Shown: positions 1-60,762 of the stretch, one piece after another
How the letters are laid out: each line of letters opens with the position of its first letter
How positions within the stretch are numbered: the first letter of the stretch is position 1
DNA from: an uncultured bacterium
GTDB lineage: Bacteria; Patescibacteriota; Saccharimonadia; Saccharimonadales; Saccharimonadaceae
DNA length: 64,000 nt
Assembly: GCA_903899655.1 (NCBI GenBank)
Contig: CAIUKF010000017.1
Coordinates: 50,586 to 114,585, forward strand
Direction of reading: 5' to 3'
Made by a program: the position numbers and the translations under genes
Notes under the pieces: generated by a model
The model's input: the letters and a program-made list of their open reading frames with translations, nothing else
Told to the model about the DNA's origin: nothing
Databases searched by the model: none

Positions 1-57
1 GAAATCGATGCTGAAGTCGAGCAAGAAATTGCCGACAACATCGACCTAGCAATCTAG
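1..57 (+). CDS. C-terminal 18 codons of a CDS that starts upstream of the window
   Basis: Frame 1 is open from base 1 to TAG at 55-57 (EIDAEVEQEIADNIDLAI*) and a hairpin terminator follows. rpoC is the usual neighbour upstream of rpsL, but the fragment is too short to say. Confidence 0.3.
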   Translation, partial: EIDAEVEQEIADNIDLAI

Positions 58-90
58 TAGATAGTAGGTAGTAGGTAGTAAAGAACAAAG

Positions 91-120
91 TAGCCTCAGG
101 TAAACCTGGGGCTATTTGTT
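91..120 (+). terminator. Rho-independent terminator of the upstream CDS
   Basis: Hairpin TAGCCTCAGG-TAAA-CCTGGGGCTA followed by a T-rich tract. Confidence 0.55.
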
Positions 121-130
121 ATTTAAAGAA

Positions 131-221
131 TTGTTTATTCCAGGGTCAGACCCTGGAATAAACACCCTGGAACAAACAATTGTTATAACAAAATATCCCA
201 AGCATAGGCTTGGGATATTTT
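131..221. other. Hairpin cluster with alternative pairings
   Basis: TTGTTTATTCCAGGG (131-145) can pair with CCCTGGAATAAACA (151-164) or with CCCTGGAACAAACAA (165-179). A 14-bp hairpin AAAATATCCCAAGC/GCTTGGGATATTTT lies at 190-221. Confidence 0.5.
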
Positions 222-343
222 ATGTAGTCAAAAATCAAATTATTTATGAGAGTGGTGGGGTGAAAGGCGATTATGGTGATGAAATTAGATATCATCTCGA
301 CATAATGCTTTCACGCAGCGGTTTCGTTTCGTACAGGAACTAA

Positions 344-422
344 ATTAGTGTCAAGTGTGGGGTCGCTAACGCAGGGTAAATGCAAGCTGAAGCTTGAATG
401 TTACGTTAGTATTGACACTAAT
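344..422. other. Three-tier nested hairpin (candidate small structured RNA or palindromic element)
   Basis: ATTAGTGTCAA (344-354) pairs with TTGACACTAAT (412-422). Inside it CTAACG (366-371) pairs with CGTTAG (404-409), around an apical palindrome CAAGCTGAAGCTTG (383-396). Confidence 0.4.
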
Positions 423-651
423 ATTAGAACCTAAAGTTAGAATATATCACAATTCTAAAAAACAAAATTTCAAAACTTATTGCGAAAACACAAAAAACCA
501 TGAAAAACATCAAGAAAACAAGAACACGCTCTTTCTGGGCCCACACACCCATAAATAATTTGACTTTTTAAATAACAAACTTAGTAAACTAACTTAATTG
601 TATTGTACCACTAACATATAATAACGTCAATATTAGTAAATATATGTCTGG

Positions 652-680
652 TTGCATATTTATCGATATTTTGTTATAAT
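652..680 (+). promoter_or_regulatory. Sigma70-like promoter for rpsL-rpsG
   Basis: TTGCAT (652-657), 17-nt spacer, TATAAT (675-680). This implies a ~220-nt leader before the rpsL ATG. Confidence 0.5.
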
Positions 681-790
681 TACACACGAGTTTACTCTTA
701 TCGGATTAACGGATTATTGAATGTGTACAGATCTGTTGGGGCCGATAAGTATGACACAGAGAGAACATGCTGAGTTCAATCTGTAAATAT

Positions 791-874
791 AGCAAATGGA
801 ATATGGCTAATGGAATATGGCGAATCGCTAATTTCAGGTGCCAATAGCCAATAGCTAAATTCCAATAGCCAATT
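791..874. repeat. GGAATATGGCTATTGG / CCAATAGC repeat family, inverted pair (site 1)
   Basis: GGAATATGGCTAATGGAATATGGCGAATCGC faces GCCAATAGCCAATAGCTAAATTCCAATAGCC. Related copies occur at 10.9, 19.2, 37.1 and 60.1 kb. Confidence 0.7.
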
Positions 875-906
875 TAATAGTCAATTAAAACGGAGTTTTT
901 AACCAA

Positions 907-1896: not shown

Positions 1897-3510
1897 ATGA
1901 AAAACGTGTGGGCGGGAAAACAAATACAATCAAAAATAAGTATTTTTTTCAACGGCTTTCGGACTGTAGAACACAGTGAATCGAACGGTTTCACAATCGT
2001 CGAACTACTAGTCGTAGTCGTAATCATTGGCATCCTAGCCTCTATCTCATACATCTCATACATGGGCATATCCCAAAAAGCAACTGTTGCTGTCTTAAAA
2101 TCTGATCTTCGTAATGCTGCAACTACACTAGAACTAGATAAAACAGTCACTGGTAACTATCCAGCTAACCAAAACGATGCCAATGGTGGTAAAGGTCTAC
2201 CTAAATCCCCTGGAACATCATACCAATACACTGTAGTTGGTAATGACTACAATCTTAGTGCTACATCTGGACTACTAGCTTTTCATATCTCTTCTACTAG
2301 TGGTGGTCTAATCGAAGACAATGTTTGGTCTGGGCATACGGCGCCAGGAGGTGGCACTGTTTGGAAGCAAACTATCGCAGGTTCATCTTATGCATGTGCG
2401 ACTGGAACGAATAGTTTGGCTTATTGTTGGGGAGCTAACACTTTTGGAGCATTAGGAAATAATTCTTCTGTTGATAGCATGACGCCTGTCAGTGTTAGCA
2501 CGTCGGGGGCTATGAGTGGTAAAACGATTAAGTTTTTGGTAGGAAATAATTATAATAACTGTGCTATCGCGTCTGACGACAAAGCATATTGTTGGGGTTG
2601 GAATTCATATGGTGCGATTGGTAATAATTCGACAACTAATGCCTTGGTGCCAACTGCGGTCGATATGACTGGTGTTTTAAGTGGTAAAACGATTAAATCA
2701 ATGACTGTAGGGCAGTATAATGCATGTGCTATCGCTTCTGACGACAAAGCATATTGTTGGGGATTAAATAATGCTGGCCAAATTGGCAATAATTCGACAA
2801 CGCAAAGCCTGGTGCCTGCAGCAGTTGACACGACGGGTTATTTAAGTGGTAAAACCGTAAAATCTATTGGTATAGGTGAATATTCTGCGTGTCTAATAGC
2901 TTCAGATAATTTAGTATACTGTTGGGGTGATAATGGCAGCGGACAGTTGGGCAATACTAATGGGAGTCAAAGACATTCTCCGTATCCAGTTGATACAACA
3001 GGTGTGTTGAATGGCAAAACAGCAGTTTCTTTATCTGTAGGTGCGGAATATGCATGTATTGTCGCCTCAGATAATAATGCTTATTGTTGGGGTAGAAACG
3101 ACTACGGTACGCTAGGTAATAATTCAAATACAAGTAGTTTTGTGCCAGTTGCTGTTAATACAGCTGGCGCATTAAGTGGTAAAACGATTTTATCTGTTTA
3201 CACTAATCAAGGTGCATATTATCATACCTGTGCTTTAGCATCAGATAATAATGCATATTGTTGGGGTGTGAATTGGAATGGTCAACTTGGTGATAATACA
3301 ACGAGCACAAGTTATGTTCCCGTTGCCGTTGATAGGTCTGGGGTGTTAAGTGGTAAGACGATAAAATCTATCAATCTGGGTAGTACTTCAACTTGTTCTA
3401 CTGCTTCTGATAATAATATATATTGTTGGGGTAGTAACGGATCCGGCCAATTAGGGAATAATTCTACAGTAGATAGCCATGTTCCAGTTGTTTCAGCAAC
3501 GATACCATAA
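1897..3510 (+). CDS. Type IV pilin-like protein with a C-terminal RCC1-repeat beta-propeller
   Basis: Prepilin-type N-terminus NGFTIVELLVVVVIIGILASI (G/F cleavage context, Glu at +5). About seven repeats of the YCWGxNxxGQLGN type follow. Confidence 0.8.
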   Translation: MKNVWAGKQIQSKISIFFNGFRTVEHSESNGFTIVELLVVVVIIGILASISYISYMGISQKATVAVLKSDLRNAATTLELDKTVTGNYPANQNDANGGKGLPKSPGTSYQYTVVGNDYNLSATSGLLAFHISSTSGGLIEDNVWSGHTAPGGGTVWKQTIAGSSYACATGTNSLAYCWGANTFGALGNNSSVDSMTPVSVSTSGAMSGKTIKFLVGNNYNNCAIASDDKAYCWGWNSYGAIGNNSTTNALVPTAVDMTGVLSGKTIKSMTVGQYNACAIASDDKAYCWGLNNAGQIGNNSTTQSLVPAAVDTTGYLSGKTVKSIGIGEYSACLIASDNLVYCWGDNGSGQLGNTNGSQRHSPYPVDTTGVLNGKTAVSLSVGAEYACIVASDNNAYCWGRNDYGTLGNNSNTSSFVPVAVNTAGALSGKTILSVYTNQGAYYHTCALASDNNAYCWGVNWNGQLGDNTTSTSYVPVAVDRSGVLSGKTIKSINLGSTSTCSTASDNNIYCWGSNGSGQLGNNSTVDSHVPVVSATIP

Positions 3511-3672: not shown

Positions 3673-5760
3673 ATGGCAGAAAAACATGTCCCTCTAGTGG
3701 ACCTACGTAATATCGGAATTATTGCTCACATTGACGCGGGCAAAACAACTACTACTGAGGCTATTTTGTATCGTACTGGTTTGTCACATAAAATTGGTTT
3801 GGTCCACGAAGGTGCAACCACGACTGACTGGATGGAGCAAGAGCGTGAACGTGGTATCACGATTACTTCAGCTGCCGTTACAGCATTCTGGAAGGGTAAA
3901 AAGATTAACCTTATCGATACACCAGGTCACATCGACTTTACTGCCGAAGTTGAACGTTCTTTACGTGTCTTGGACGGTGCAGTTACGGTCTTTGACGGTA
4001 AGATGGGTGTTGAAGCACAATCTGAAACTGTTTGGCGCCAAGCTAACAAGTACAGTGTACCTCGTATCTGTTTTATTAACAAGATTAACCAAACTGGTGG
4101 CGACTTTTACAAATCACTTGATTCAATTCACCGCCGTTTAACTAAAAACGCTTTGCCAATTCACTTGCCAATTGGTTTTGAAAAAGATATCAATGGTGTT
4201 GTTGACTTGGTTGACATGAAATCTTATACGTATACTGATTTTGCCGACCATCAATTAATTGTTGGTGAAGTTCCAGCTGATATGGTTGAAAAAGCTAAGA
4301 ACGCTCGCAAATTGCTGGTTGAAGCTGCCGTTGAAGCCGATGATGAATTGTTTGAACGATTCTTGGATAAGGGTGAAGATTCAATTACGATTGATGAATT
4401 AAAGGGTGCATTGCGCAAACGTGTTTTGGCTGGCGACTTTTACCTAGTAACAGGCGGCGATGGTCGTGGTGTTATTGTCGAAAAAGTTTTGGACTTGGTT
4501 GTTGATTACTTGCCATCACCACTAGATGTTAGTGGTATTTGGGGTCATGACCCTAAAACCGGTGCTGAAATTGAACGCAAACCTGATGTCAAAGAACCTT
4601 TGTCATCACTAGCCTTCAAAATCGCAACTGACCCATTTGTTGGTAAGTTGATTTTCGTTCGTGTTTACAGTGGTCAAATGACAGCTGGTTCATACGTCCT
4701 TAACACCGTAACAGGTGAAAAAGAACGTATCGGCCGTATCGTTCGTATGCACGCTGATAAACGTGAAGATATTGATTCAATCGATGCTGGCGATATTGCT
4801 GCCGTTGTAGGTTTAAAGGGTACATTTACTGGTCATACACTATCTGACATTGCTAAACCAATTACACTTGAATCAATTACTTTCCCAGATCCTCCAGTTT
4901 CGATTGCGGTTGAACCAAAAACCAAAGCCGACCAAGAAAAAATGGGTATTGCTTTGCAACGTTTGGCTGAAGAAGACCCAACTTTCCGAATTCATACCGA
5001 TGAAGAAACTGGTCAGACAATTATGTCAGGAATGGGTGAGTTGCACTTGGATATTTTGATTGATCGTATGAAGCGCGAATTTAAGGTTGAAGCCAATATT
5101 GGTGAACCTCAGGTTGCCTTCCGTGAATCTATCAAAGGCAATTCAGACGTTCAAGGTAAACACGCTAAACAATCTGGTGGTCGTGGTCAGTACGGTGATG
5201 TCTGGGTTAAATTTGAACCAAACGAAATGGGTAAAGGCTTTGAATTTATCGATGCCATCAAGGGTGGATCAGTGCCTCAAGAGTACCGCAAACCAGTTGA
5301 AGCTGGTATTCGTGAAACATTGCTAGGCGGTGTTATTGCTGGTTATCCAGTCGTCGATGTCAAAGCGACACTTTATGACGGAAGCTACCATGATGTTGAC
5401 TCCAGTGAATTAGCCTTTAAATTGGCGGGTTCAATTGCAGCCCGTGAAGGTATCAAAAAAGCTAAACCAATTCTACTTGAACCAATCATGCGCGTCGAAG
5501 TTACTACTCCTGAAGATTTCATGGGTGACGTTATTGGCGATTTGAACAGTCGTCGTGGCCGTATCGAGGCCATGGAAGATTTAAGTGCTGGTGCTAAATT
5601 AATCAAGGCTTTCGTTCCACTGGCTAATATGTTTGGTTATACAACCGATCTAAGGTCAATGAGCCAAGGCCGTGCTGCCAGCACAATGGAACTAGCTCAG
5701 TACGAGGAAGTACCACCTAACGTTTCTCAAGAGATTATTGAAAAACGTTCAAGTAAATAA
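3673..5760 (+). CDS. fusA: Elongation factor G
   Basis: 695 aa with the GTPase motifs AHIDAGKTT and DTPGH; conserved position after rpsG. Confidence 0.97.
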
Positions 5761-8217: not shown

Positions 8218-8696
8218 CACCGCCCACCATTCCAACACTAATCCAACATCCTGTTTGTCTGACGCGCTTAAAATTAAATCAACTAAACTATGTATCCTGC
8301 GTAACTCGTTACCACTCAAACATACTCGGATAGCCTGGTTTAGTTGATTTAATTTTAACGGTCAAACAAAGGGATATTGTATTAGTATTGTTCATGTTGG
8401 ACGGCTAGCGATGTTTTGAATAGTCGCTAGCCACCAACTCCACCACAAACAACTCAGTCGGCTGTTAGATTACCGTAAAAATAGTCAGTTAGTTTCGTTG
8501 CTAGTCGAGGACCACCTGAACCCAATTGTTTGCTGTTCAGCAAAACAATTGGCGTGAAGGCGATCCTTCACTTTATGGTACCGTCCACGCGTACCATACA
8601 GGAAGGTCGTTCCGCAGACTACAAAGAAACTAACTGACTATTTTTAAACGCGTAATCTAAGTGGCGACTTAGGGGTTTGGGGAGGAGGGGGTGGTG
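8218..8696 (+). ncRNA. Candidate large structured RNA or nested palindromic element (~480 nt, class unknown)
   Basis: No ORF over 60 aa. A closing helix 8218-8225/8689-8696 encloses two perfect helices of 21 bp and 20 bp, plus at least five further hairpins. Details are in the findings. Confidence 0.35.
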
Positions 8697-9672: not shown

Positions 9673-10893
9673 ATGAATACTATTTATCGTAAACGCAAGC
9701 ATTTGTATCTGACAGCTTTATTAGTTTTGATAGTAATCACTTCTGGTGTCGGTGCTTGGTACTATATTAATAATTATCAAAATAAATCAAAGGTTACTGC
9801 TTCGCAACCCGGTAAGTCTAATGCTGATACTACAGTGGTCAAAGAAGCGCCAAAAAGTGACCCCGTAATTCATATTGCGGCTATGGGTGATATGTTGGCG
9901 CATGATACGATTATTGCCAATGCCAAAACAAGTGACAGCTATGACTTTACCAAGTATTTTACAAACATTAAATCAGCCTATAAGGATGCTAATGTTGTTT
10001 TTTGTAACCAAGAGGGTTTAAGCGCTGGTGATCAGTATGGTATCAGTGGTTATCCGTCATTTAACGCCCCTACTAAATTTTCGGCAGATTTGCAGTCGGG
10101 CGCTGGCTGTAACGTTATTAATCTGGCAAATAATCATATGGGCGATAAAGGTGTTAATGCAACAAACACCACAATTGATAACTGGGCCGCCCTAAAACCT
10201 TTGGCTGTTAGCGGTGCTAATAAATCTGTTGCTGATCAAGAAAAAGTTAGCTTTGCCGAAGTGAACGGTATCAAGATTGGTTTTGTGTCATTTGCTGATT
10301 TTAACAATAATAAATCTACGCCAGATTACAGCATTAATATATATCACGATGATGCATTATTGCGTCGTTTAATAACCCAGGCTAGGGCAGGGGCTGATGT
10401 AGTAATTGTATCAATGCATTGGGGTGTCGAGGATTCGAGTATGGTAAGCACCGATCAAATAAATATGGCTAATGAACTAAGCTTGTTAGGTGTTGATGTA
10501 ATTATTGGTACTGGCCCACACGTGTTGCAAAAAGTTCAAACAATAACACGCAACGATGGCGGTAAAACTATCGTTTGGTATTCGTTGGGTAATATGCTGT
10601 CGTCACAGTTGAACATACCAGAGTTAATTGGTGGTATCGCAACATTTGATATTACTAAATCAACTGATAATAAAATTACGATTACTAACTTGGCATTTAC
10701 GCCAACATATATGCATTACGAATGGACGACTACGCAGGCCGCTAATAATGATTTATTGGCACGTAAAAATGCTATGATATATCTGTTAAGCGCTGCCGCT
10801 GAACCTTTGTCGCGTTCACTATTTAATACAACTGTTGCCGAGCAAAAGCAATATGTTGTTGACGTTTTAGGTTCTGAAGTCACGGTGAAATGA
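9673..10893 (+). CDS. CapA/PGA_cap family metallophosphoesterase-like protein
   Basis: 406 aa; N-terminal anchor, then GDMLAHD, NLANNHMGDKG and VSMHWG motifs typical of CapA-type proteins. Confidence 0.7.
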   Translation: MNTIYRKRKHLYLTALLVLIVITSGVGAWYYINNYQNKSKVTASQPGKSNADTTVVKEAPKSDPVIHIAAMGDMLAHDTIIANAKTSDSYDFTKYFTNIKSAYKDANVVFCNQEGLSAGDQYGISGYPSFNAPTKFSADLQSGAGCNVINLANNHMGDKGVNATNTTIDNWAALKPLAVSGANKSVADQEKVSFAEVNGIKIGFVSFADFNNNKSTPDYSINIYHDDALLRRLITQARAGADVVIVSMHWGVEDSSMVSTDQINMANELSLLGVDVIIGTGPHVLQKVQTITRNDGGKTIVWYSLGNMLSSQLNIPELIGGIATFDITKSTDNKITITNLAFTPTYMHYEWTTTQAANNDLLARKNAMIYLLSAAAEPLSRSLFNTTVAEQKQYVVDVLGSEVTVK

Positions 10894-10903
10894 AGAGTCT
10901 ATT

Positions 10904-11031
10904 AGAATATGGCTATTGGAATGTGGCAAAGTAGTCTCAAATAATATGTGCTATGTATAGATTCTAAGTTCATAATTAGGATGGAACTAATTGTTATTTG
11001 CTAAATTCCAATAGCCATATTCCAATAGCTA
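10904..11031. repeat. GGAATATGGCTATTGG repeat family, inverted pair between convergent genes (site 2)
   Basis: AGAATATGGCTATTGGAATGTGGCAAA (10904-10930) and AAATTCCAATAGCCATATTCCAATAGC (about 11003-11029). Confidence 0.75.
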
Positions 11032-22824: not shown

Positions 22825-22912
22825 AATATAGTCCGTGGGGTGCTTTATGATAGTTTTCATAAGGCTGAGATCATACCCAATTAACTTGATCCGGATAATG
22901 CCGGCGTAAGGA
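22825..22912 (+). promoter_or_regulatory. TPP (THI-box) riboswitch
   Basis: GGGGTGC...GGCTGAGA...ACCC...CTTGATCCGGATAATGCCGGCGTAAGGAG matches the conserved THI-box core. The 3' end includes the Shine-Dalgarno of the next gene. Confidence 0.85.
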
Positions 22913-22918
22913 GTAGAT

Positions 22919-23575
22919 ATGAGTAATATAACATTAGATAAACCAGCGTTTTTAGTAGGCGCTGGTATTTTTAATATAAGCATATATAAAAAACAATGGT
23001 CAGATAATTATACAATTATCGGTGTCGACGGTGGTGCCGACAGTCTAGCAAAAATTGGCGTAACACCAGATTATATTATTGGCGATTTAGATTCGATTAT
23101 TGATCCAATCAAATACGGCAAGTCATCAACAGTAATCAGAGTTGCCGAACAGGATACAACTGATTTTGAAAAAGCTTTGATTTACTTCGATGCACCACTG
23201 TATTTATGCATTGGTTTTACTGGCTCACGATTTGATCATACAATCGAAGTTTTGCATATTTTTACAAAATTTCGTAACAAAACAATTATTTGTTTTCACT
23301 ATAACGATTTAATATTCGTAGTACCTAACGATTGGAAGCCTAAATTATCCATCGGAACGCGTGTGTCGTTGTTCCCAATTGAGCCTACTAACATACACTC
23401 AACAACCGGACTAAAATATTCTGCAACTGGACTCAACCTTGTTATGGGGTCAATAATAAGTACGTCAAATGAAGCAATCTCTAATCAGATTGAAGTGAAA
23501 TACGATAAAGGGCTGCTTGTTGGTATAGTGCCGGCCAGTCAATACAAAAACATAATTAATTCATTAGGACTTTAA
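22919..23575 (+). CDS. thiN: Thiamine pyrophosphokinase
   Basis: 218 aa with GVDGGAD, GDLDS, EQDTTDFEKAL and GFTGSRFDH motifs, as in ThiN/TPK. Confidence 0.8.
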   Translation: MSNITLDKPAFLVGAGIFNISIYKKQWSDNYTIIGVDGGADSLAKIGVTPDYIIGDLDSIIDPIKYGKSSTVIRVAEQDTTDFEKALIYFDAPLYLCIGFTGSRFDHTIEVLHIFTKFRNKTIICFHYNDLIFVVPNDWKPKLSIGTRVSLFPIEPTNIHSTTGLKYSATGLNLVMGSIISTSNEAISNQIEVKYDKGLLVGIVPASQYKNIINSLGL

Positions 23576-53635: not shown

Positions 53636-54634
53636 ATGGCATTAAACAAAAGCAGTTCATATGTACTACTAAATATTCTGGCTGGACGCAACACGGCAGC
53701 GATGATAAGTGAGTATATGACGAATATAGATATTCGATCTATTCAACGTTCACTAACTAGGTTAGTCGAGCTTGGAGTTATAAAACGAAATGGAATCAAT
53801 AATCCAACCTATAATATTGCGTATTCAAAACTTATCAGCACCGAAATACCTGACAAGCTAATAATTAATGAAGATAGGCCTGAAAGCTCTTTGAACTTTG
53901 ACCTTATCGATTGGCTAAAATCAATTCCCGAAAGTGAACTGGAATTTGCTTTAGGGTTAGACAAAATGATACTAGATAGCATTGGTACAAGTGGCAAAAT
54001 GACCGCTAAAGACCTAGAATACCTGACAGTCGAGCTGTCATGGAAGTCTTCGGCACTGGAAGGTAACACCTATACATTACTAGACACACAGCTTCTTTTA
54101 CTAGAAGGCATTAAAGCAAAAGATAAGACAGAGTTTGAAACTCAGATGATTCTTAACCACAAGAACGCTATTTCATTTATTGTTGAAAATAGTGATTTAT
54201 TTAAAAAAGATATTAAATATAGCACCCTAGAGGAACTTCATCGAATTATTAGCCACAATCTAGGAATCGATAGTGGCCTACGTAAAAAAATAATCCGAAT
54301 TAGCGCCAGTAACTATCAACCCTTGTCTAATCCTCATCAGTTAAGGGAATGTGCAGATTCAGTACTGGGAATTATTAGTAACATAAATAGTCCTGTCCTG
54401 CGGTCTTTATTGGCGCTGGCGCTAATACCATACCTACAAACCTTTGAAGATGGCAACAAACGAACTGGGCGCATGTTGGCGAATGGTATATTGATTCATT
54501 CTATCTCTCGTGGATTTAGTTTGCGCAGGTTGACAGCACGACAACTTGCCTTGGCATATTTATCTTTTTATGAGTTCAATAGTTTAAAGGCGCTGTCTGA
54601 TTTGTTAGCTGCTGAATTAAGCAAGCCAGTATAA
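53636..54634 (+). CDS. Fic/DOC family protein with an N-terminal winged-helix domain and a degenerate active-site motif
   Basis: 332 aa. It has the inhibitory-helix motif SSALEGN. The Fic motif reads QTFEDGNKRTGR where HxFx(D/E)GNGRxxR is expected (His to Gln, Gly to Lys). Confidence 0.7.
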   Translation: MALNKSSSYVLLNILAGRNTAAMISEYMTNIDIRSIQRSLTRLVELGVIKRNGINNPTYNIAYSKLISTEIPDKLIINEDRPESSLNFDLIDWLKSIPESELEFALGLDKMILDSIGTSGKMTAKDLEYLTVELSWKSSALEGNTYTLLDTQLLLLEGIKAKDKTEFETQMILNHKNAISFIVENSDLFKKDIKYSTLEELHRIISHNLGIDSGLRKKIIRISASNYQPLSNPHQLRECADSVLGIISNINSPVLRSLLALALIPYLQTFEDGNKRTGRMLANGILIHSISRGFSLRRLTARQLALAYLSFYEFNSLKALSDLLAAELSKPV

Positions 54635-54870
54635 TTCAATATTTGGGTTTTGAGCATTTTTCAGTCCTGCTCAGCACTACTCGAACTAGTCGAGATTCTT
54701 TTCAATTACCTCGACCCAACTAATGCAGTTAGTACAAGCCGTATAATGAGGAAGACAGTGGGAGGTAATTTTTTCTAAACTAACAGACACCACTAAAGAC
54801 AGTGGTTTGACATATCATCTGTTTATGCTATTATTATTTTACTAATATACTGTATTGGCGTTGTTTAATA

Positions 54871-54903
54871 AGTCGGATTATTTTGGTATGTCGTGTGGTC
54901 GAG
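54871..54903. repeat. Cassette inverted repeat, left arm 1
   Basis: AGTCGGATTATTTTGGTATGTCGTGTGGTCGAG is complementary to 55271-55277 plus 55315-55340. Confidence 0.7.
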
Positions 54904-54946
54904 ACGCTATACTATTCTTATTTATAATCTCATAACAAACAAAAAT

Positions 54947-55255
54947 ATGGAAAATTATAAAAAATTCAATTGGAAAAAAGTTGAAGACGAAGCTGATCTT
55001 TCGTTCTATGAGGTATCGTTAATACTTAACGATTGTTTGAATATGGCCATAAGCATCGCAAAGAATGTCTATAGAAAAGAGATAGAAAATAATATTTTTG
55101 ATTGGTTTATAGAATATGAGAATGAAGCAATTGCAGAGATTGCAGAAGGCCCCTATCTGACTTTTCAAAAAGAGTCTCAAAAGGCTGTTGTCTTCAAAGA
55201 AGCTCGCAGATATATGCGAGCGAACATTGGAGTACCCCAGGGTGTTACTGAATAA
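54947..55255 (+). CDS. Hypothetical small protein, cassette paralog 1 (102 aa)
   Basis: The ATG at 54947 (MENYKKFNWKKV) lies inside the inverted-repeat-bounded unit. It is a paralog of 55454-55795. Confidence 0.55.
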   Translation: MENYKKFNWKKVEDEADLSFYEVSLILNDCLNMAISIAKNVYRKEIENNIFDWFIEYENEAIAEIAEGPYLTFQKESQKAVVFKEARRYMRANIGVPQGVTE

Positions 55256-55256
55256 T

Positions 55257-55340
55257 CATATGACAGCGCTCTCGACCGCGCCGTCATATGGTACAGGCAA
55301 ACAGCTGACTCCCGCACGACATACATAAAATAATCCGATT
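55257..55340. repeat. Post-stop hairpin plus cassette right arm 1
   Basis: Hairpin CATATGACAGCGC-TCTCGACC-GCGCCGTCATATG (55257-55290), then CACGACATACATAAAATAATCCGATT (55315-55340). Confidence 0.7.
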
Positions 55341-55377
55341 TAGAATGCCTAGATACTTATGTTAGAGTTATTTAATA

Positions 55378-55408
55378 AGTCGAATTATTTTAGTGTCCTG
55401 TGGTCGAG
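55378..55408. repeat. Cassette inverted repeat, left arm 2
   Basis: AGTCGAATTATTTTAGTGTCCTGTGGTCGAG. Confidence 0.7.
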
Positions 55409-55453
55409 CGTAGGGCAATTATGTTTTATAATAATTAATAAAATACCAAATAT

Positions 55454-55795
55454 ATGAACAACAAAAATACAATTGTGAATACTGAGGAGATTGATCAAAC
55501 CAGATTCAATTGGGATAAAGTGTCAAAAAAGGCAAACCTCCACAGATTTACGATTTCAGACATACTAAACGAGGTTGTTGATATCCACATCAGTGTGGCA
55601 AGAAATGTTTACAAAGATGATATCAAGAATGGTATCAATAAATGGTATAAAAGTTTTGAGAAAAGGTCAATCCCTAGTCTTCGGAGGTATTTGAGATATA
55701 GTACTGACGAAGAAAAAAAAGTTGTTTACAAAGAAGTAAAAAGATATATGAAGGCAAACATTTTTTATGGTATGCCTTCAAAGAAAATTAAATAA
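55454..55795 (+). CDS. Hypothetical small protein, cassette paralog 2 (113 aa)
   Basis: Shares FNWxKV, ILN, NVY and VV(F/Y)KE(A/V)(R/K)RYM(R/K)ANI with paralog 1. Confidence 0.55.
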   Translation: MNNKNTIVNTEEIDQTRFNWDKVSKKANLHRFTISDILNEVVDIHISVARNVYKDDIKNGINKWYKSFEKRSIPSLRRYLRYSTDEEKKVVYKEVKRYMKANIFYGMPSKKIK

Positions 55796-55799
55796 TTAT

Positions 55800-55880
55800 A
55801 TGATGGCGCACTCGACCGCGCCGTCATGTAATGTAGGTATTGAGGCGACTCCCACAGGGCACATTAAAATAATCCGATTT
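55800..55880. repeat. Post-stop hairpin plus cassette right arm 2
   Basis: Hairpin ATGATGGCGC-ACTCGACC-GCGCCGTCAT (55800-55827), then GGCACATTAAAATAATCCGATT (55858-55879). Confidence 0.7.
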
Positions 55881-56039
55881 GTTAGTTTCTAAAATACATA
55901 AACTATGGTTTATGTATTGAATGAAATTATTTGAGCAGTTTTTAGGCATGTTCAGAACCTTATGGGGTGTCACCCTGCTAATAATAAATACCTCTTAAAA
56001 TATAATATTATTGCTATGATTAATATCAGGAGTGTATTT

Positions 56040-56285
56040 ATGAAAAAGACCAACGATACATATTGCATCGTGTTCAAAGTAAATAATATAACTGAACGTT
56101 ATTATCGCGACAAAGAAGGCTGGCTAAAAATTAGCAATAAAGGTCGCGTTTTTCGTGCTACGGCCGAACAAGTTATGAACCATCTGTTACCAGCCTTAGC
56201 CTTCAGCGACAAACTCGGCCTGACAGTCACAGTTGAACATTATGAAAAACCTTATTGGCAAACCCTAGAAGTTAGGGAAGAATAA
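56040..56285 (+). CDS. Hypothetical protein (81 aa)
   Basis: ATG at 56040, 7 nt after an AGGAG Shine-Dalgarno. The ORF-track start at 55962 has no Shine-Dalgarno. Confidence 0.5.
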   Translation: MKKTNDTYCIVFKVNNITERYYRDKEGWLKISNKGRVFRATAEQVMNHLLPALAFSDKLGLTVTVEHYEKPYWQTLEVREE

Positions 56286-59445: not shown

Positions 59446-59877
59446 ATGAATCAACAAGAATGGGAAGCATCAATCGAAAAAGCCGCTATAGTATCAGCCT
59501 GTCTAATCAAAAAAGATAATAAGTATTTATTGGTTCAAGAAAGCCAGCCTAAAGCATACGGCCTGTGGAATTTGCCAGCCGGCCATGTCGATAAGGGTGA
59601 AAAAATACGCGAAGCTGCTATCAGGGAAACAAAAGAAGAAACAGGTTTTGATGTAAAGCTTATAAATGAAGTTGCTATCTTACACGAAGAATCACATAAT
59701 GCCGTAAAGCATATTTTCACAGCTGAAATTATTGGTGGCGAGCTTACCATCGAAGAAGACGAAATTTTAGATATAAAATGGCTAACATACGATGAAGTCA
59801 AAGAATTAAATAACTCCGGCAAACTTCACCGTCCATGGGTTTGGGATATAATCAACAAAGACCATGTTACTAGTTAG
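59446..59877 (+). CDS. NUDIX hydrolase
   Basis: 143 aa with Nudix box [22 protein letters not shown]. Confidence 0.85.
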
Positions 59878-60000
59878 ACTAGTTTAATCTAGACCAATAT
59901 ATATTTTTCTACGATCACAGTTATAAATTGACAATTAGCATATGTTATGTCAATATAGTTGTATAAGTTTTCTATTTAGAAAGTTATATAAGTACATTAA

Positions 60001-60034
60001 CAAATCATATTATTTTAGGACATGTCGATGTGTC
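60001..60034. repeat. Cassette inverted repeat, left arm 3
   Basis: AAATCATATTATTTTAGGACATGTCGATGTGTCC is complementary to 60641-60677. Confidence 0.6.
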
Positions 60035-60133
60035 CAACCTTAATTAACCAATATAAATATAATCAGTCAAAGGCTAAATGATATAGGAATATATTCTATA
60101 TTCTATATTCGTTAGTTCAATGATCAAAAAAAC

Positions 60134-60544
60134 ATGGACAGTTACGACAGACTAATGTTATTAGGTACTAGTATAAGATTGCTGGTATCCAGTTTTGTTT
60201 CGTCTTTAGTATTAGTAATTATTGGATACGAAGTAATTAATTTTTGTTTCAATTTCTGGAAACTAACATTAATAATCACTATATTAATATTACTGATAAA
60301 ATTTGCAAAACGCGGCATAATAGCGTTGATTGAGGAAACATATAAACTTAAAAGACCAGGTTCTTTAGGTGTATATATAATCAATGGGGTTACAGCGACC
60401 GTATTTGCAAGTGCCTTTTTGTTATATATTAATAATAATATAACAAATACATTAACAGCTGTGGATAGTTTTATTATTATAGGCTGCTACGTAATTTGTA
60501 GTATAGTTGTTAGTTCTGTACAGAGTGGACCGCCACTTGGTTAA
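60134..60544 (+). CDS. Hypothetical membrane protein (136 aa) inside the third inverted-repeat-bounded unit
   Basis: ORF with four hydrophobic helices. Confidence 0.5.
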   Translation: MDSYDRLMLLGTSIRLLVSSFVSSLVLVIIGYEVINFCFNFWKLTLIITILILLIKFAKRGIIALIEETYKLKRPGSLGVYIINGVTATVFASAFLLYINNNITNTLTAVDSFIIIGCYVICSIVVSSVQSGPPLG

Positions 60545-60640
60545 TGTCAACAAATATTGGATCTCTTGCTAGGCAAGAGATCCCGATGCTGCAAAATTAG
60601 ATTGAGTTAATGTCGAGCTTTCGCTCCGTTAACTGCAGAC

Positions 60641-60677
60641 ACACCGCACTACGACATGTCAATAAAATAATCTGATT
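60641..60677. repeat. Cassette inverted repeat, right arm 3
   Basis: ACACCGCACTACGACATGTCAATAAAATAATCTGATTT. Confidence 0.6.
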
Positions 60678-60691
60678 TGATATATTTATAA

Positions 60692-60715
60692 ATAGAGCCT
60701 CAGTGGGCTCTATTT
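60692..60715 (+). terminator. Terminator
   Basis: ATAGAGCC-TCAGT-GGGCTCTAT hairpin followed by TTT. Confidence 0.6.
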
Positions 60716-60762
60716 TGTATTAAAACTCATATATGTAAACAAGTTTGTTATTATATATTCAG

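Follow-up and report, generated by a model that had tools for sequence, protein, structure and literature searches.

Two small paralogous genes of a Candidatus Saccharibacteria genome, each enclosed by imperfect inverted repeats, raise the question of whether such repeats act in the DNA, as the ends of mobile or recombining units, or in the transcript, as the two strands of a stem that closes it. The genes lie at positions 54,871-55,880 of the window, i.e., of the whole 64,000-nt stretch analyzed here (contig CAIUKF010000017.1, ~38% G+C), which carries rpoC, rpsL, rpsG, a pilin-like gene, fusA, and tuf. Saccharibacteria, like the rest of the Patescibacteria, possess tiny genomes and depend on bacterial hosts to live on; their gene expression and strain-specific gene turnover are little known. 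The first-pass annotation of the locus offered three readings: a gene-cassette array, non-autonomous elements bounded by terminal inverted repeats, and mRNAs whose 5' and 3' ends pair. The last of these appears to fit best, judging by putative transcription signals outside the repeats, co-variation of the repeat arms, and two closed domains in the predicted RNA. Our tentative proposal, which we hold to be nearly as apt to stand as to fall, is that the arms pair in the transcript, and that the closing stems so formed insulate each cistron and probably guide its RNase III-type processing and the protection of its ends. From the sequence we infer all three of its components, namely that the arms are transcribed, that they pair in vivo, and that RNase III acts on the duplex.

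Architecture of the repeat-enclosed units

The two units are named U1 (54866-55342) and U2 (55373-55884). Their parts are as follows; promoter and terminator calls, here and below, are consensus matches.

54807..54834 (+), promoter-like site of U1/U2: TTGACA, 16-nt spacer, TG-c-TATTAT; 11/12 consensus positions, extended -10
54842..54865 (+), U1 leader; by pairing with the spacer 55343-55366 in the predicted fold, it extends the U1 closing stem outward
54866..54907 (+), U1 left (5') arm, with GGTCGAG at 54897-54903; 36 bp with the right arm, -45.6 kcal/mol
54947..55255 (+), U1 open reading frame (ORF), 102 aa; orphan all-helical protein; no Shine-Dalgarno sequence
55257..55290 (+), U1 post-stop hairpin; 13-nt arms, 92% complementary; loop CTCGACC
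55300..55342 (+), U1 right (3') arm
55343..55366 (+), inter-unit spacer, the 3' strand of the extended U1 stem in the predicted fold
55373..55412 (+), U2 left (5') arm, with GGTCGAG at 55402-55408; 36 bp with the right arm, -41.8 kcal/mol
55454..55795 (+), U2 ORF, 113 aa; paralog of the U1 protein, 40% identity
55795..55832 (+), U2 post-stop hairpin; 15 bp including 2 G-U pairs; loop CTCGACC
55841..55884 (+), U2 right (3') arm
55894..55917 (+), AT-rich terminator-like hairpin behind U2, ATACATAAAC-TATG-GTTTATGTAT; 10 nt past the U2 right arm and 14 nt past its ...CCGATTT core

The repeat arms reported earlier are all present in the sequence where they had been placed, both for U1 (left arm 54871-54903, with the partners CTCGACC at 55271-55277 and CACGAC...CCGATT at 55315-55340) and for U2 (55378-55408, 55811-55817, and 55858-55879). 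The proteins are indeed paralogs (E = 9e-26), and the hairpins behind the genes are real, the second one extending over 55795-55832 (55800-55827 in the first-pass annotation). Each of these G+C-rich hairpins begins within 2 nt of the stop codon and has an 8-nt loop that includes CTCGACC, and the complementary GGTCGAG is found where the left arm ends on its inner side (54897 and 55402), so that the complementarity described between loop and arm holds in both units. The bare 7-mer GGTCGAG/CTCGACC shows no enrichment, with 6 copies counted over both strands of the 64-kb window and ~8 expected by an estimate of 128,000 positions / 4^7; its weight rests on conservation at homologous positions and not on copy number. 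The flanking repeats are better conserved than the genes, as had been claimed: U1 and U2 are 84% identical in the left arm, 81% in the post-stop hairpin, and 78% in the right arm vs. 54% in ORF DNA. Their likeness runs ~15-30 nt outward beyond the left arm, and by sequence U1 and U2 are clearly a tandem duplication.

The two-unit design stood up, but it is not limited to 54871-55880. Looking for further copies, as the first-pass annotation had suggested, revealed two more units that share the arm core AARTCnnATTATTT, namely U3 (59998-60684) and U4 (229-574). In the window, this 14-mer core occurs 9 times at ≤2 mismatches vs. 1.4 times expected, and the pattern A[AG]TC..ATTATTT has four forward and four reverse-complement sites that make up four left/right pairs, plus one stray match. 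The units are 340-690 nt in size, with four copies in ~84 kb of the genome.

59998..60040 (+), U3 left arm, AAATCATATTATTTTAGGACATGTCGATGTGTCC; 31 bp with the right arm, -33.9 kcal/mol
60134..60544 (+), U3 ORF, 136 aa; hydrophobic, by sequence a membrane protein; assigned to no family and without relation to U1/U2
60559..60583 (+), U3 post-stop hairpin; 11 bp, perfect
60632..60684 (+), U3 right arm
60690..60720 (+), canonical-looking intrinsic terminator behind U3, AAATAGAGCC-tcagt-GGGCTCTATTT, then TGTATT; ~10 nt past the right-arm core
190..221 (no strand assigned), bidirectional terminator-like hairpin, 8 nt beyond the rpoC-side U4 arm
229..268 (no strand assigned), U4 arm on the side of the rpoC terminator; 32 bp with the other arm, -30.7 kcal/mol
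532..574 (no strand assigned), U4 arm on the rpsL side
602..630 (-), U4 promoter-like site: TTGACG, 17-nt spacer, TG-g-TACAAT; directed into U4

U4 occupies the rpoC-rpsL spacer and contains no convincing ORF. A 42-aa, strongly hydrophobic ORF on its minus strand (424-552) has its ATG within an arm, downstream of the promoter-like site of that strand, and in this recalls type I toxins whose start codon is masked. This idea was set aside, as the ORF is not clearly conserved in the U4 ortholog of the related sequence L029, which has merely a weakly similar 37-aa GTG ORF.

Pairing of the arms

The closing duplexes predicted across unit versions comprise 31-38 bp (-30.7 to -45.6 kcal/mol) and clear the 20-bp mark for an RNase III-type stem; the arms are imperfect, being 79-94% complementary with bulges. 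None of 3000 random window pairs of equal geometry matches the U1 and U2 duplexes (random mean -12, best -31 to -33 kcal/mol). When six left and six right arms were combined in a matrix, cognate pairs yielded -30.7 to -45.6 and non-cognate pairs -16 to -33 kcal/mol, with the single exception of the U1 left arm and the U2 right arm (-45.4 kcal/mol). The palindrome described between the two ORFs exists, but these adjacent halves (U2 left arm and U1 right arm) pair at -28.3 kcal/mol, more weakly than the cognate long-range partners of U1 and U2. Among 81 ORFs of the window, only those of U1, U2, and U3 are enclosed by an upstream/downstream inverted repeat (scores 16-19.5 vs. 8.9 ± 2.2), and the sole other high score stems from tRNA genes; this result was obtained by a local-alignment scan, and a gene-wide RNAduplex scan with 150-nt flanks did not discriminate.

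Sequence changes between unit versions tend to fall on both strands of the stem. The inner stems of U1 and U2 differ by a G-C to C-G and an A-U to G-C replacement, as well as by wobble changes, and in the L001 right arm a C-to-U change preserves a G-U pair. In the U4 ortholog of L029, located at the same site, both arms have been rewritten (ATTATTTATG to AATATTSAAGG, also written ATTATTTATGRG to AATATTSAAGGG), and the stem nevertheless keeps 32 bp at -40.1 kcal/mol. Both-sided changes affect 10 of the 27 base pairs when the six arm pairs are aligned. Such co-variation of the arms within a unit argues for selection on pairing.

Every unit shows the long-range closing stem in both minimum-free-energy and centroid folds (z = -5.8 to -11). 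In the fold of the predicted dicistronic RNA (54842-55925, 1084 nt), two domains are each closed on their own, with the terminator hairpin behind them, and in both fold types the leader 54842-54865 pairs with the spacer 55343-55366, lengthening the U1 stem to ~55 bp. The start regions of U1-U3 are unpaired in the predicted folds. In U1, U2, and the U1-type unit of L001 (U1'), the plus-strand RNA is 7-9 kcal/mol more stable than the minus-strand RNA owing to 3-4 G-U pairs; the U2 hairpin is likewise plus-biased (-22.1 vs. -14.9 kcal/mol), whereas those of U1 and L001 are not. A search of Rfam gave no match to any U unit at the gathering threshold (whole window) and none credible at E ≤ 1 (U4 and U1/U2 regions).

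Putative transcription signals and proposed role of the closing stems

A TTGACA/TTGACG-type promoter-like site is located ~30-40 nt outside one arm of U1 (54807-34), U4 (minus strand, 630-602), and U3 (TTGACA at 59929, upstream of the unit), and a terminator-like hairpin is located 8-14 nt outside the other arm of U3 (60690-60720), U2 (55894-55917), and U4 (190-221). By these consensus matches, three independent units have the common order promoter-arm-cargo-arm-terminator. The ends of mobile elements would not be expected to fall three times within ready-made promoter-terminator frames. The U1/U2 promoter-like site is also present in L001 (TTGACT) and L010 (TTGACG), and its predicted start at ~54842 lies ~25 nt ahead of the U1 left arm; no promoter-like site comparable to 54807-54834 was detected between U1 and U2. 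For U4, the minus-strand site is the best promoter-like one, and its TG-a-TACAAT version is retained in L029, as is the 190-221 hairpin, whose stem shows compensatory changes there. The hairpin behind U2 is also kept in L001, with a G+C content under the scan criterion and a weak T-run; the U3 terminator was read from the sequence, as the T-run criterion of the terminator scan left it unlisted.

In the mechanism we propose, the units are expression modules, complete in themselves, that serve small, strain-variable accessory genes. The transcript of each module would have, near its 5' end, a sequence that pairs with another near the 3' end, which yields a closing duplex of 31-38 bp (~55 bp for U1). 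U1 and U2 would be co-transcribed from the promoter at 54807-54834, and their RNA would fold as two separately closed domains plus the terminator hairpin. RNase III would then act on the long duplex, so that each cistron is insulated and excised with base-paired ends shielded from exonucleases, by the same logic as in rRNA processing stalks and phage T7 early mRNAs. Insulation and excision of this type appear the most likely role because a duplex of such length is a natural RNase III substrate. Recognition or stability is the probable function of both the conserved outer arm sequence and the post-stop hairpin, whose loop could pair with GGUCGAG of the 5' arm. Different units have 15-20 arm bases in common, identical and in direct orientation, so that the arms may also double as passive crossover points through which units are gained, lost, or replaced between strains. 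If this proposal is correct, closing stems would provide a portable "plug-in" frame in which a new small gene is expressed, cut from any transcript, and stabilized, and the same sequences would give recombination a handle for swapping genes between strains.

Several observations weigh against this proposal. A second promoter-like site (TCGAGA-18-TATAAT, 54899-54928) lies downstream of the U1 left arm, and TTTTATAATAATTAAT is conserved at the equivalent place in U2 and L010; if transcription starts at the 54899-54928 site, the left arm remains untranscribed and the closing-stem model fails for U1/U2. The concerted change of arms could also be explained by gene conversion between inverted repeats at the DNA level, and the co-variation statistics are weak, being drawn from six unit versions of one narrow lineage. 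The strand asymmetry is inconsistent, with U3 and U4 pairing slightly better on the minus strand. Finally, the model leaves the common outer arm sequence around unrelated cargo unexplained. Two arguments were given up: the bias of G-U over A-C pairs is not decisive, as it favors the plus strand for U1/U2 and not for U3/U4, and the polarity of the arms relative to the gene was dropped, as an inverted repeat is identical from either strand.

Apart from the promoter-like sites outside the arms, the arm core itself yields outward-facing -10-like AATAAT hexamers, one on the plus strand of the U1 right arm (CTGACT-18-AATAAT, 55305-55334) and another on the minus strand of the U3 left arm (TGGACA-16-AATAAT, 60009-60036). 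By sequence, the arms could thus create outward-reading promoters, like Correia elements.

Fast-evolving genes between conserved flanks

In collections of 5.8 billion clustered proteins and 1.84 billion representatives, the U1/U2 family has only four members, of which one is a fragment. Nothing above curated thresholds was found for U1/U2 in Pfam or NCBIfam, and there was no match in PHROGs; comparisons with phage and plasmid DNA and with viral proteins were likewise negative. In PADLOC, U1 gave one sub-significant match (PDC-M27B, E = 0.0012). Soluble helical proteins are predicted for both units, and the confident AlphaFold model of a family protein (pLDDT 87) is a helical bundle with no neighbor in the PDB.

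Comparison of the window with L001 yields dN 0.31, dS 0.76, and dN/dS 0.40 for U1, and comparison with L010 yields dN 0.18, dS 0.49, and dN/dS 0.37 for U2. By these values, the ORFs are genuinely coding. The neighboring genes have dN ~0.02 and dS 0.12-0.63; dN of U1 is ~15 times theirs, and by these sequence comparisons the U1/U2 proteins change ~10-15 times faster than the neighbors. In the same comparison with L001, the U1 flanks are nearly invariant (54804-54950, 99% identical, 1/147 nt differing; 55252-55342, 97%, 3/91), i.e., at the sequence level the non-coding flanks are more constrained than the ORF. Given this fast evolution and the absence of relatives, the enclosed genes are candidates for host-interaction or conflict functions. 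A diversity-generating retroelement was considered and rejected: no reverse transcriptase or template repeat is present, and the changes span the whole ORF.

Variation between strains and distribution

The gain and loss of units among relatives, which the first-pass annotation had named as a test of the cassette idea, was observed at the U1/U2 locus and in the rpoC-rpsL spacer. At the Fic-AhpC locus, the window lineage has the arrangement [U1][U2] in one orientation (20 contigs with identical AhpC and 20 with identical U2 protein, all distinct arrangements agreeing); assemblies report the majority orientation, and minority orientations are hidden. L001-L003 contain a single U1-type unit (U1'), with the junction within TAAAATAATCCGATTT, whereas in L010 a U2-type gene (72% identical) stands directly behind the U1 promoter and has a hybrid left arm, U1-like on the outside and of the U2 kind on the inside. 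The units of L001-L003 and L010 have the same orientation as in the window. The junctions at this locus are inside the conserved outer arms, within 16-21-nt direct repeats, and therefore ordinary unequal homologous recombination suffices to explain the gain and loss of U1/U2.

The rpoC-rpsL spacer (window 86-900; identical S12 protein) is a hotspot of variation, with lengths of 410, 850, 908, or 1037 nt and four contents, between a conserved rpoC terminator and a conserved rpsL promoter/leader. It holds U4 in the window, L030, and L034, a different arm-enclosed unit at the same site in L029, and, in L031, an armless gene for a 177-aa hydrophobic protein that has a promoter of its own and a 25-nt hairpin repeat on either flank; in L032 and L035 it is empty of units, but the surrounding sequence differs too and the site is not a clean excision. 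The 25-nt hairpin-forming repeat TTTTGCAAGGTCCGTCYYTGYAA brackets the L031 gene (~3040-3070 and 3715-3760) and also occurs on both sides of the L029 unit (~3160-3185 and 3720-3760); it may mark where insertion or recombination took place upstream of the rpsL promoter. The variable block at U3, as compared with the L001 lineage, begins at 59852, which is 145 nt ahead of the arm. Because the empty U4 site is unclean and the U3 variable block starts outside the arm, the arms are, by these sequence comparisons, not general boundaries of variable DNA. Contig breaks cluster near the units.

A further repeat accompanies the first locus. In L001, a direct repeat of ~100 nt (9727-9830 and 10470-10565), containing CTCGAAC..GTCGAG..CCTCGACCC, brackets the whole module of promoter, U1, and terminator. 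Its window copies, here called repeat A, are found at 54677-54726 and 55930-55990, the right one being mostly deleted. It looks like a duplicated promoter-proximal region or an insertion scar.

54677..54726 (+), left copy of repeat A (~100-nt repeat), with CTCGAACTAGTCGAG and CCTCGACCC

Paired arms were confined to this lineage in all collections scanned. Among 185,579 GTDB species genomes, 12 arm-pattern matches occurred in unrelated taxa, none with a partner arm; JGI metagenomes gave two chance matches and IMG/VR 120 single ones, again without partners. The window lineage is known from ENA and Logan metagenome assemblies and is absent from the GTDB species representatives and JGI contigs scanned. 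The more distant Fic-linked loci (84% identity) have no arms.

Alternative explanations

That the arms work at the DNA level, as terminal inverted repeats or recombination sites of non-autonomous mobile units whose passenger genes are moved by an enzyme encoded elsewhere, seems to us unlikely. Such cassettes would fit four units with a common arm core and unrelated cargo, all of it orphan and strain-variable; the differences in unit content between strains, with junctions inside the arms at the U1/U2 locus; the empty rpoC-rpsL site of L032 and L035; and the clustering of contig breaks. They would not explain why the U2 gain/loss junctions are in direct repeats, for which homologous recombination is enough, why U1 and U2 remain alike ~15-30 nt outside the left arm, as a tandem duplication predicts, or why the strain-variable segment at U3 and U4 exceeds the arm-bounded piece and the empty site is unclean. 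No direct repeat of 2-10 bp (target-site duplication) borders the ends of the U1-U4 repeats, the genome and metagenome collections given above contained no paired arms, and no recombinase, integrase, or cognate transposase was seen in the ~55 kb with precomputed Pfam labels (window ~45-74 kb, rpoB-tuf, and S10-L4 regions). An IS110-family transposase is present in the same samples (L039), but to our knowledge IS110 elements do not use long terminal inverted repeats. Furthermore, recognition of terminal repeats by a protein predicts no compensatory change of the inner arms. If the arms were DNA recombination sites after all, they would define a new cassette system. A more specific version, in our view quite improbable, takes the arms for two separated halves of one structured recombination site, belonging to a Saccharibacteria cassette system not known so far: the excised unit would carry right arm, spacer, and left arm as one cognate hairpin of ~95 nt, similar to attC, and integration would open it in the middle and leave its halves flanking the cargo. 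If so, bacteria with very reduced genomes would have a new way to shuffle small accessory genes.

Inverted repeats of ~35 nt with a common core at several loci are also the signature of phase-variable switches under one invertase, which would flip the DNA between the arms and thereby switch the gene off an outside promoter or change its neighbors; the U1 promoter indeed lies outside the repeat, and recombination between arms would homogenize them. We nonetheless rate invertible segments as highly improbable, as a single orientation is seen in all assemblies examined (20 AhpC and 20 U2-protein contigs, L001-L003, and L010), where a low-frequency switch could hide, no invertase was found in the annotated neighborhoods (~55 kb), and the arms are imperfect (79-94% complementary, with bulges), whereas the repeats of inversion switches are usually near-perfect. 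A regulatory role in the DNA, with the arm core and GGTCGAG/CTCGACC serving as operators for looping or repression by a DNA-binding protein such as the adjacent HTH-Fic protein, is very unlikely. There is an overlap between the left arm and the -35 region of the internal promoter-like site, further GTCGAG/CTCGAC half-sites are found in repeat A just past the Fic gene, and the outer arm sequence is conserved across unrelated cargo; protein binding, however, needs no co-variation of the inner arms within a unit, U3 and U4 lack the GGTCGAG/CTCGACC pair, the core has been rewritten in both arms together in L029, and the 7-mer is not enriched in the window (6 copies vs. an estimated ~8). The repeats might, finally, be functionless remains of tandem duplication whose flanks are conserved through recent recombination between lineages and not through selection. 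The dS range of the neighboring genes (0.12-0.63) shows mosaic recombination between lineages and U1/U2 are clearly a tandem duplication, but proteins at 40% identity are combined here with arms and hairpins that are 78-84% identical and still pair, the units U3, U4, and L029 keep 31-32-bp stems with differing sequences, and enclosing repeats are confined to these units, which makes a lack of function rather improbable.

Comparison with known systems

The arm sequences and the U1/U2 proteins match nothing described, in agreement with the first-pass annotation; the underlying principles, i.e., closing stems, RNase III stalks, and repeat-enclosed elements, are known elsewhere. No description of gene-enclosing stems in Saccharibacteria was found in the literature. 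The nearest parallels to the proposed closing stems are rRNA operons and the early polycistronic mRNAs of phage T7, in which flanking sequences pair over a long range into duplexes of at least 20 bp and units are cut from a longer transcript. The units described here are likewise flanked, in tandem, by sequences able to form at least 20 bp, but they comprise small protein-coding accessory genes and one non-coding unit, their arm sequence is lineage-specific, and cleavage is only proposed. In icaR of Staphylococcus aureus, hok, and other type I toxin mRNAs, the ends of the mRNA pair and control its stability, processing, or translation, and the ribosome-binding site is masked. A long-range pairing of the two ends of one RNA is predicted here as well, whereas the predicted folds leave the start region unpaired, the stems are of much greater length, and the products of U1-U3 are not small toxins. 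Type I toxin mRNAs were rejected as an identification on these grounds: the products are soluble helical proteins for U1 (102 aa) and U2 (113 aa) and a 136-aa protein for U3, vs. small hydrophobic toxins of <~60 aa, and the start regions are unmasked in the predicted folds.

Correia elements are ~100-155 bp long, have about a hundred copies, and insert at TA with duplication. In Neisseria, the RNA hairpin of their inverted repeats binds RNase III, their ends can create promoters, and their presence or absence in strains affects neighboring genes (PMC2649163). They carry no genes, in contrast to the 340-690-nt units with ORFs described here, which number four in ~84 kb and show no duplication.

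The resemblance to gene-cassette arrays that had been suggested holds for the strain-variable content of units; the hallmarks of integrons are absent, and recombination in direct repeats explains the junctions. Like integron cassettes, the units are small, often orphan ORFs in tandem, with palindromes conserved in structure over sequence and with arrays that vary between strains; unlike them, they sit in their own promoter/terminator frame, with the palindrome halves placed around the ORF. An assignment to attC sites was rejected, as there are no RYYYAAC (R'') and GTTRRRY (R') core sites, the junctions being CCGATTT|AGAATG, CCGATTT|GTTAGTT, and, in L001, CCGATTT|ATTAGTT. The near-misses GTTAGAG (55358) and GTTAGTT both fail the consensus and have no RYYYAAC partner. 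The geometry is also incompatible: the cognate halves flank the ORF ~390-590 nt apart instead of standing together on its 3' side, and the adjacent halves pair more weakly (-28.3 vs. -45.6 and -41.8 kcal/mol). An integron array would have an IntI integrase, attI, and Pc next to it; no integrase was seen in the ~55 kb with Pfam labels, and no attI.

Of the non-autonomous elements proposed at first, the inverted repeats stood, whereas target-site duplications, arm-bounded variable segments, copies outside the lineage, and a cognate transposase were lacking. Relative to MITEs (miniature transposable elements with inverted repeats) and mobile insertion cassettes, terminal inverted repeats are present and target-site duplications are absent in U1-U4; breakpoints do not coincide with the repeat ends at U3/U4 and are ambiguous at U2, where the junctions are inside direct repeats. 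As for dispersed copies, there are four units in ~84 kb of genome and none in other collections, and the sole transposase seen is of the IS110 type (L039). Mobile insertion cassettes and MITEs resemble the units in that inverted repeats bracket a short transposase-less segment, sometimes with a passenger gene (PMC10969869). The units differ from them in having no near-identical dispersed copies, no cognate IS found, and variable segments larger than the repeat-bounded piece.

An assignment to Xer/dif sites was also rejected. Such sites are 28 bp long, with an 11-6-11 XerC/XerD layout and an ATAA-N6-TTAT center; the arm GACATACATAA-AATAAT-CCGATTTAGAA has no 11-6-11 layout, TTAT-type XerD half, or internal dyad, when compared with this general dif consensus. 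In the dif modules of Acinetobacter, genes are bracketed by inversely oriented short sites, as here, and modules are shuffled between replicons and strains (PMC6449649). Adjacent units of the window, by contrast, do not share one site.

Neighboring genes and other repeats

The HTH-Fic protein encoded upstream of U1 (53636-54634, 332 aa) is conserved across Saccharibacteria, with hundreds of 60-70% identical relatives labeled Candidatus Saccharibacteria, Saccharimonadales, or Patescibacteria. In its Fic motif LQTFEDGNKRTGR the catalytic His is apparently replaced, and PADLOC gives a SoFic-like match (E = 1e-13). A 92% identical copy in L039 adjoins an IS110-type transposase, FtsK, and an OLD-like ATPase, and looks like part of a mobile element. 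Just past the units, a conserved 81-aa ORF (56040-56285) has weak matches to RusA-like Holliday-junction resolvases (NCBIfam, E = 0.011; PHROG_34, E = 0.0012), which are below any threshold, and the gene is much shorter than RusA.

Stop-codon-rich tandem repeats (TAGTAGGTAGTAG...) follow directly 3' of the rpoC stop codon (window 50-85), and inverted partners of them, CTACTACCTACTA, are found in L032 (3590-3720), downstream and upstream of rpsL, as long hairpins. Other long, near-perfect local hairpins (21-32-nt arms, 91-100% complementary) are located near ribosomal-protein operons at 10899-11028, 8268-8358, 8476-8646, and ~790-880; the motif ATGGAATATGGC / GCCAATAGCCAAT, common to the rpsL upstream region and 10.9 kb, represents a repeat family unrelated to the units. 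In the str operon, an inserted gene (1897-3510) separates rpsG from fusA; its 537-aa pilin-like product contains RCC1 repeats and has a methylation motif at the N-terminus. A TPP riboswitch is located at 22826-22930, with a score above the Rfam gathering score.

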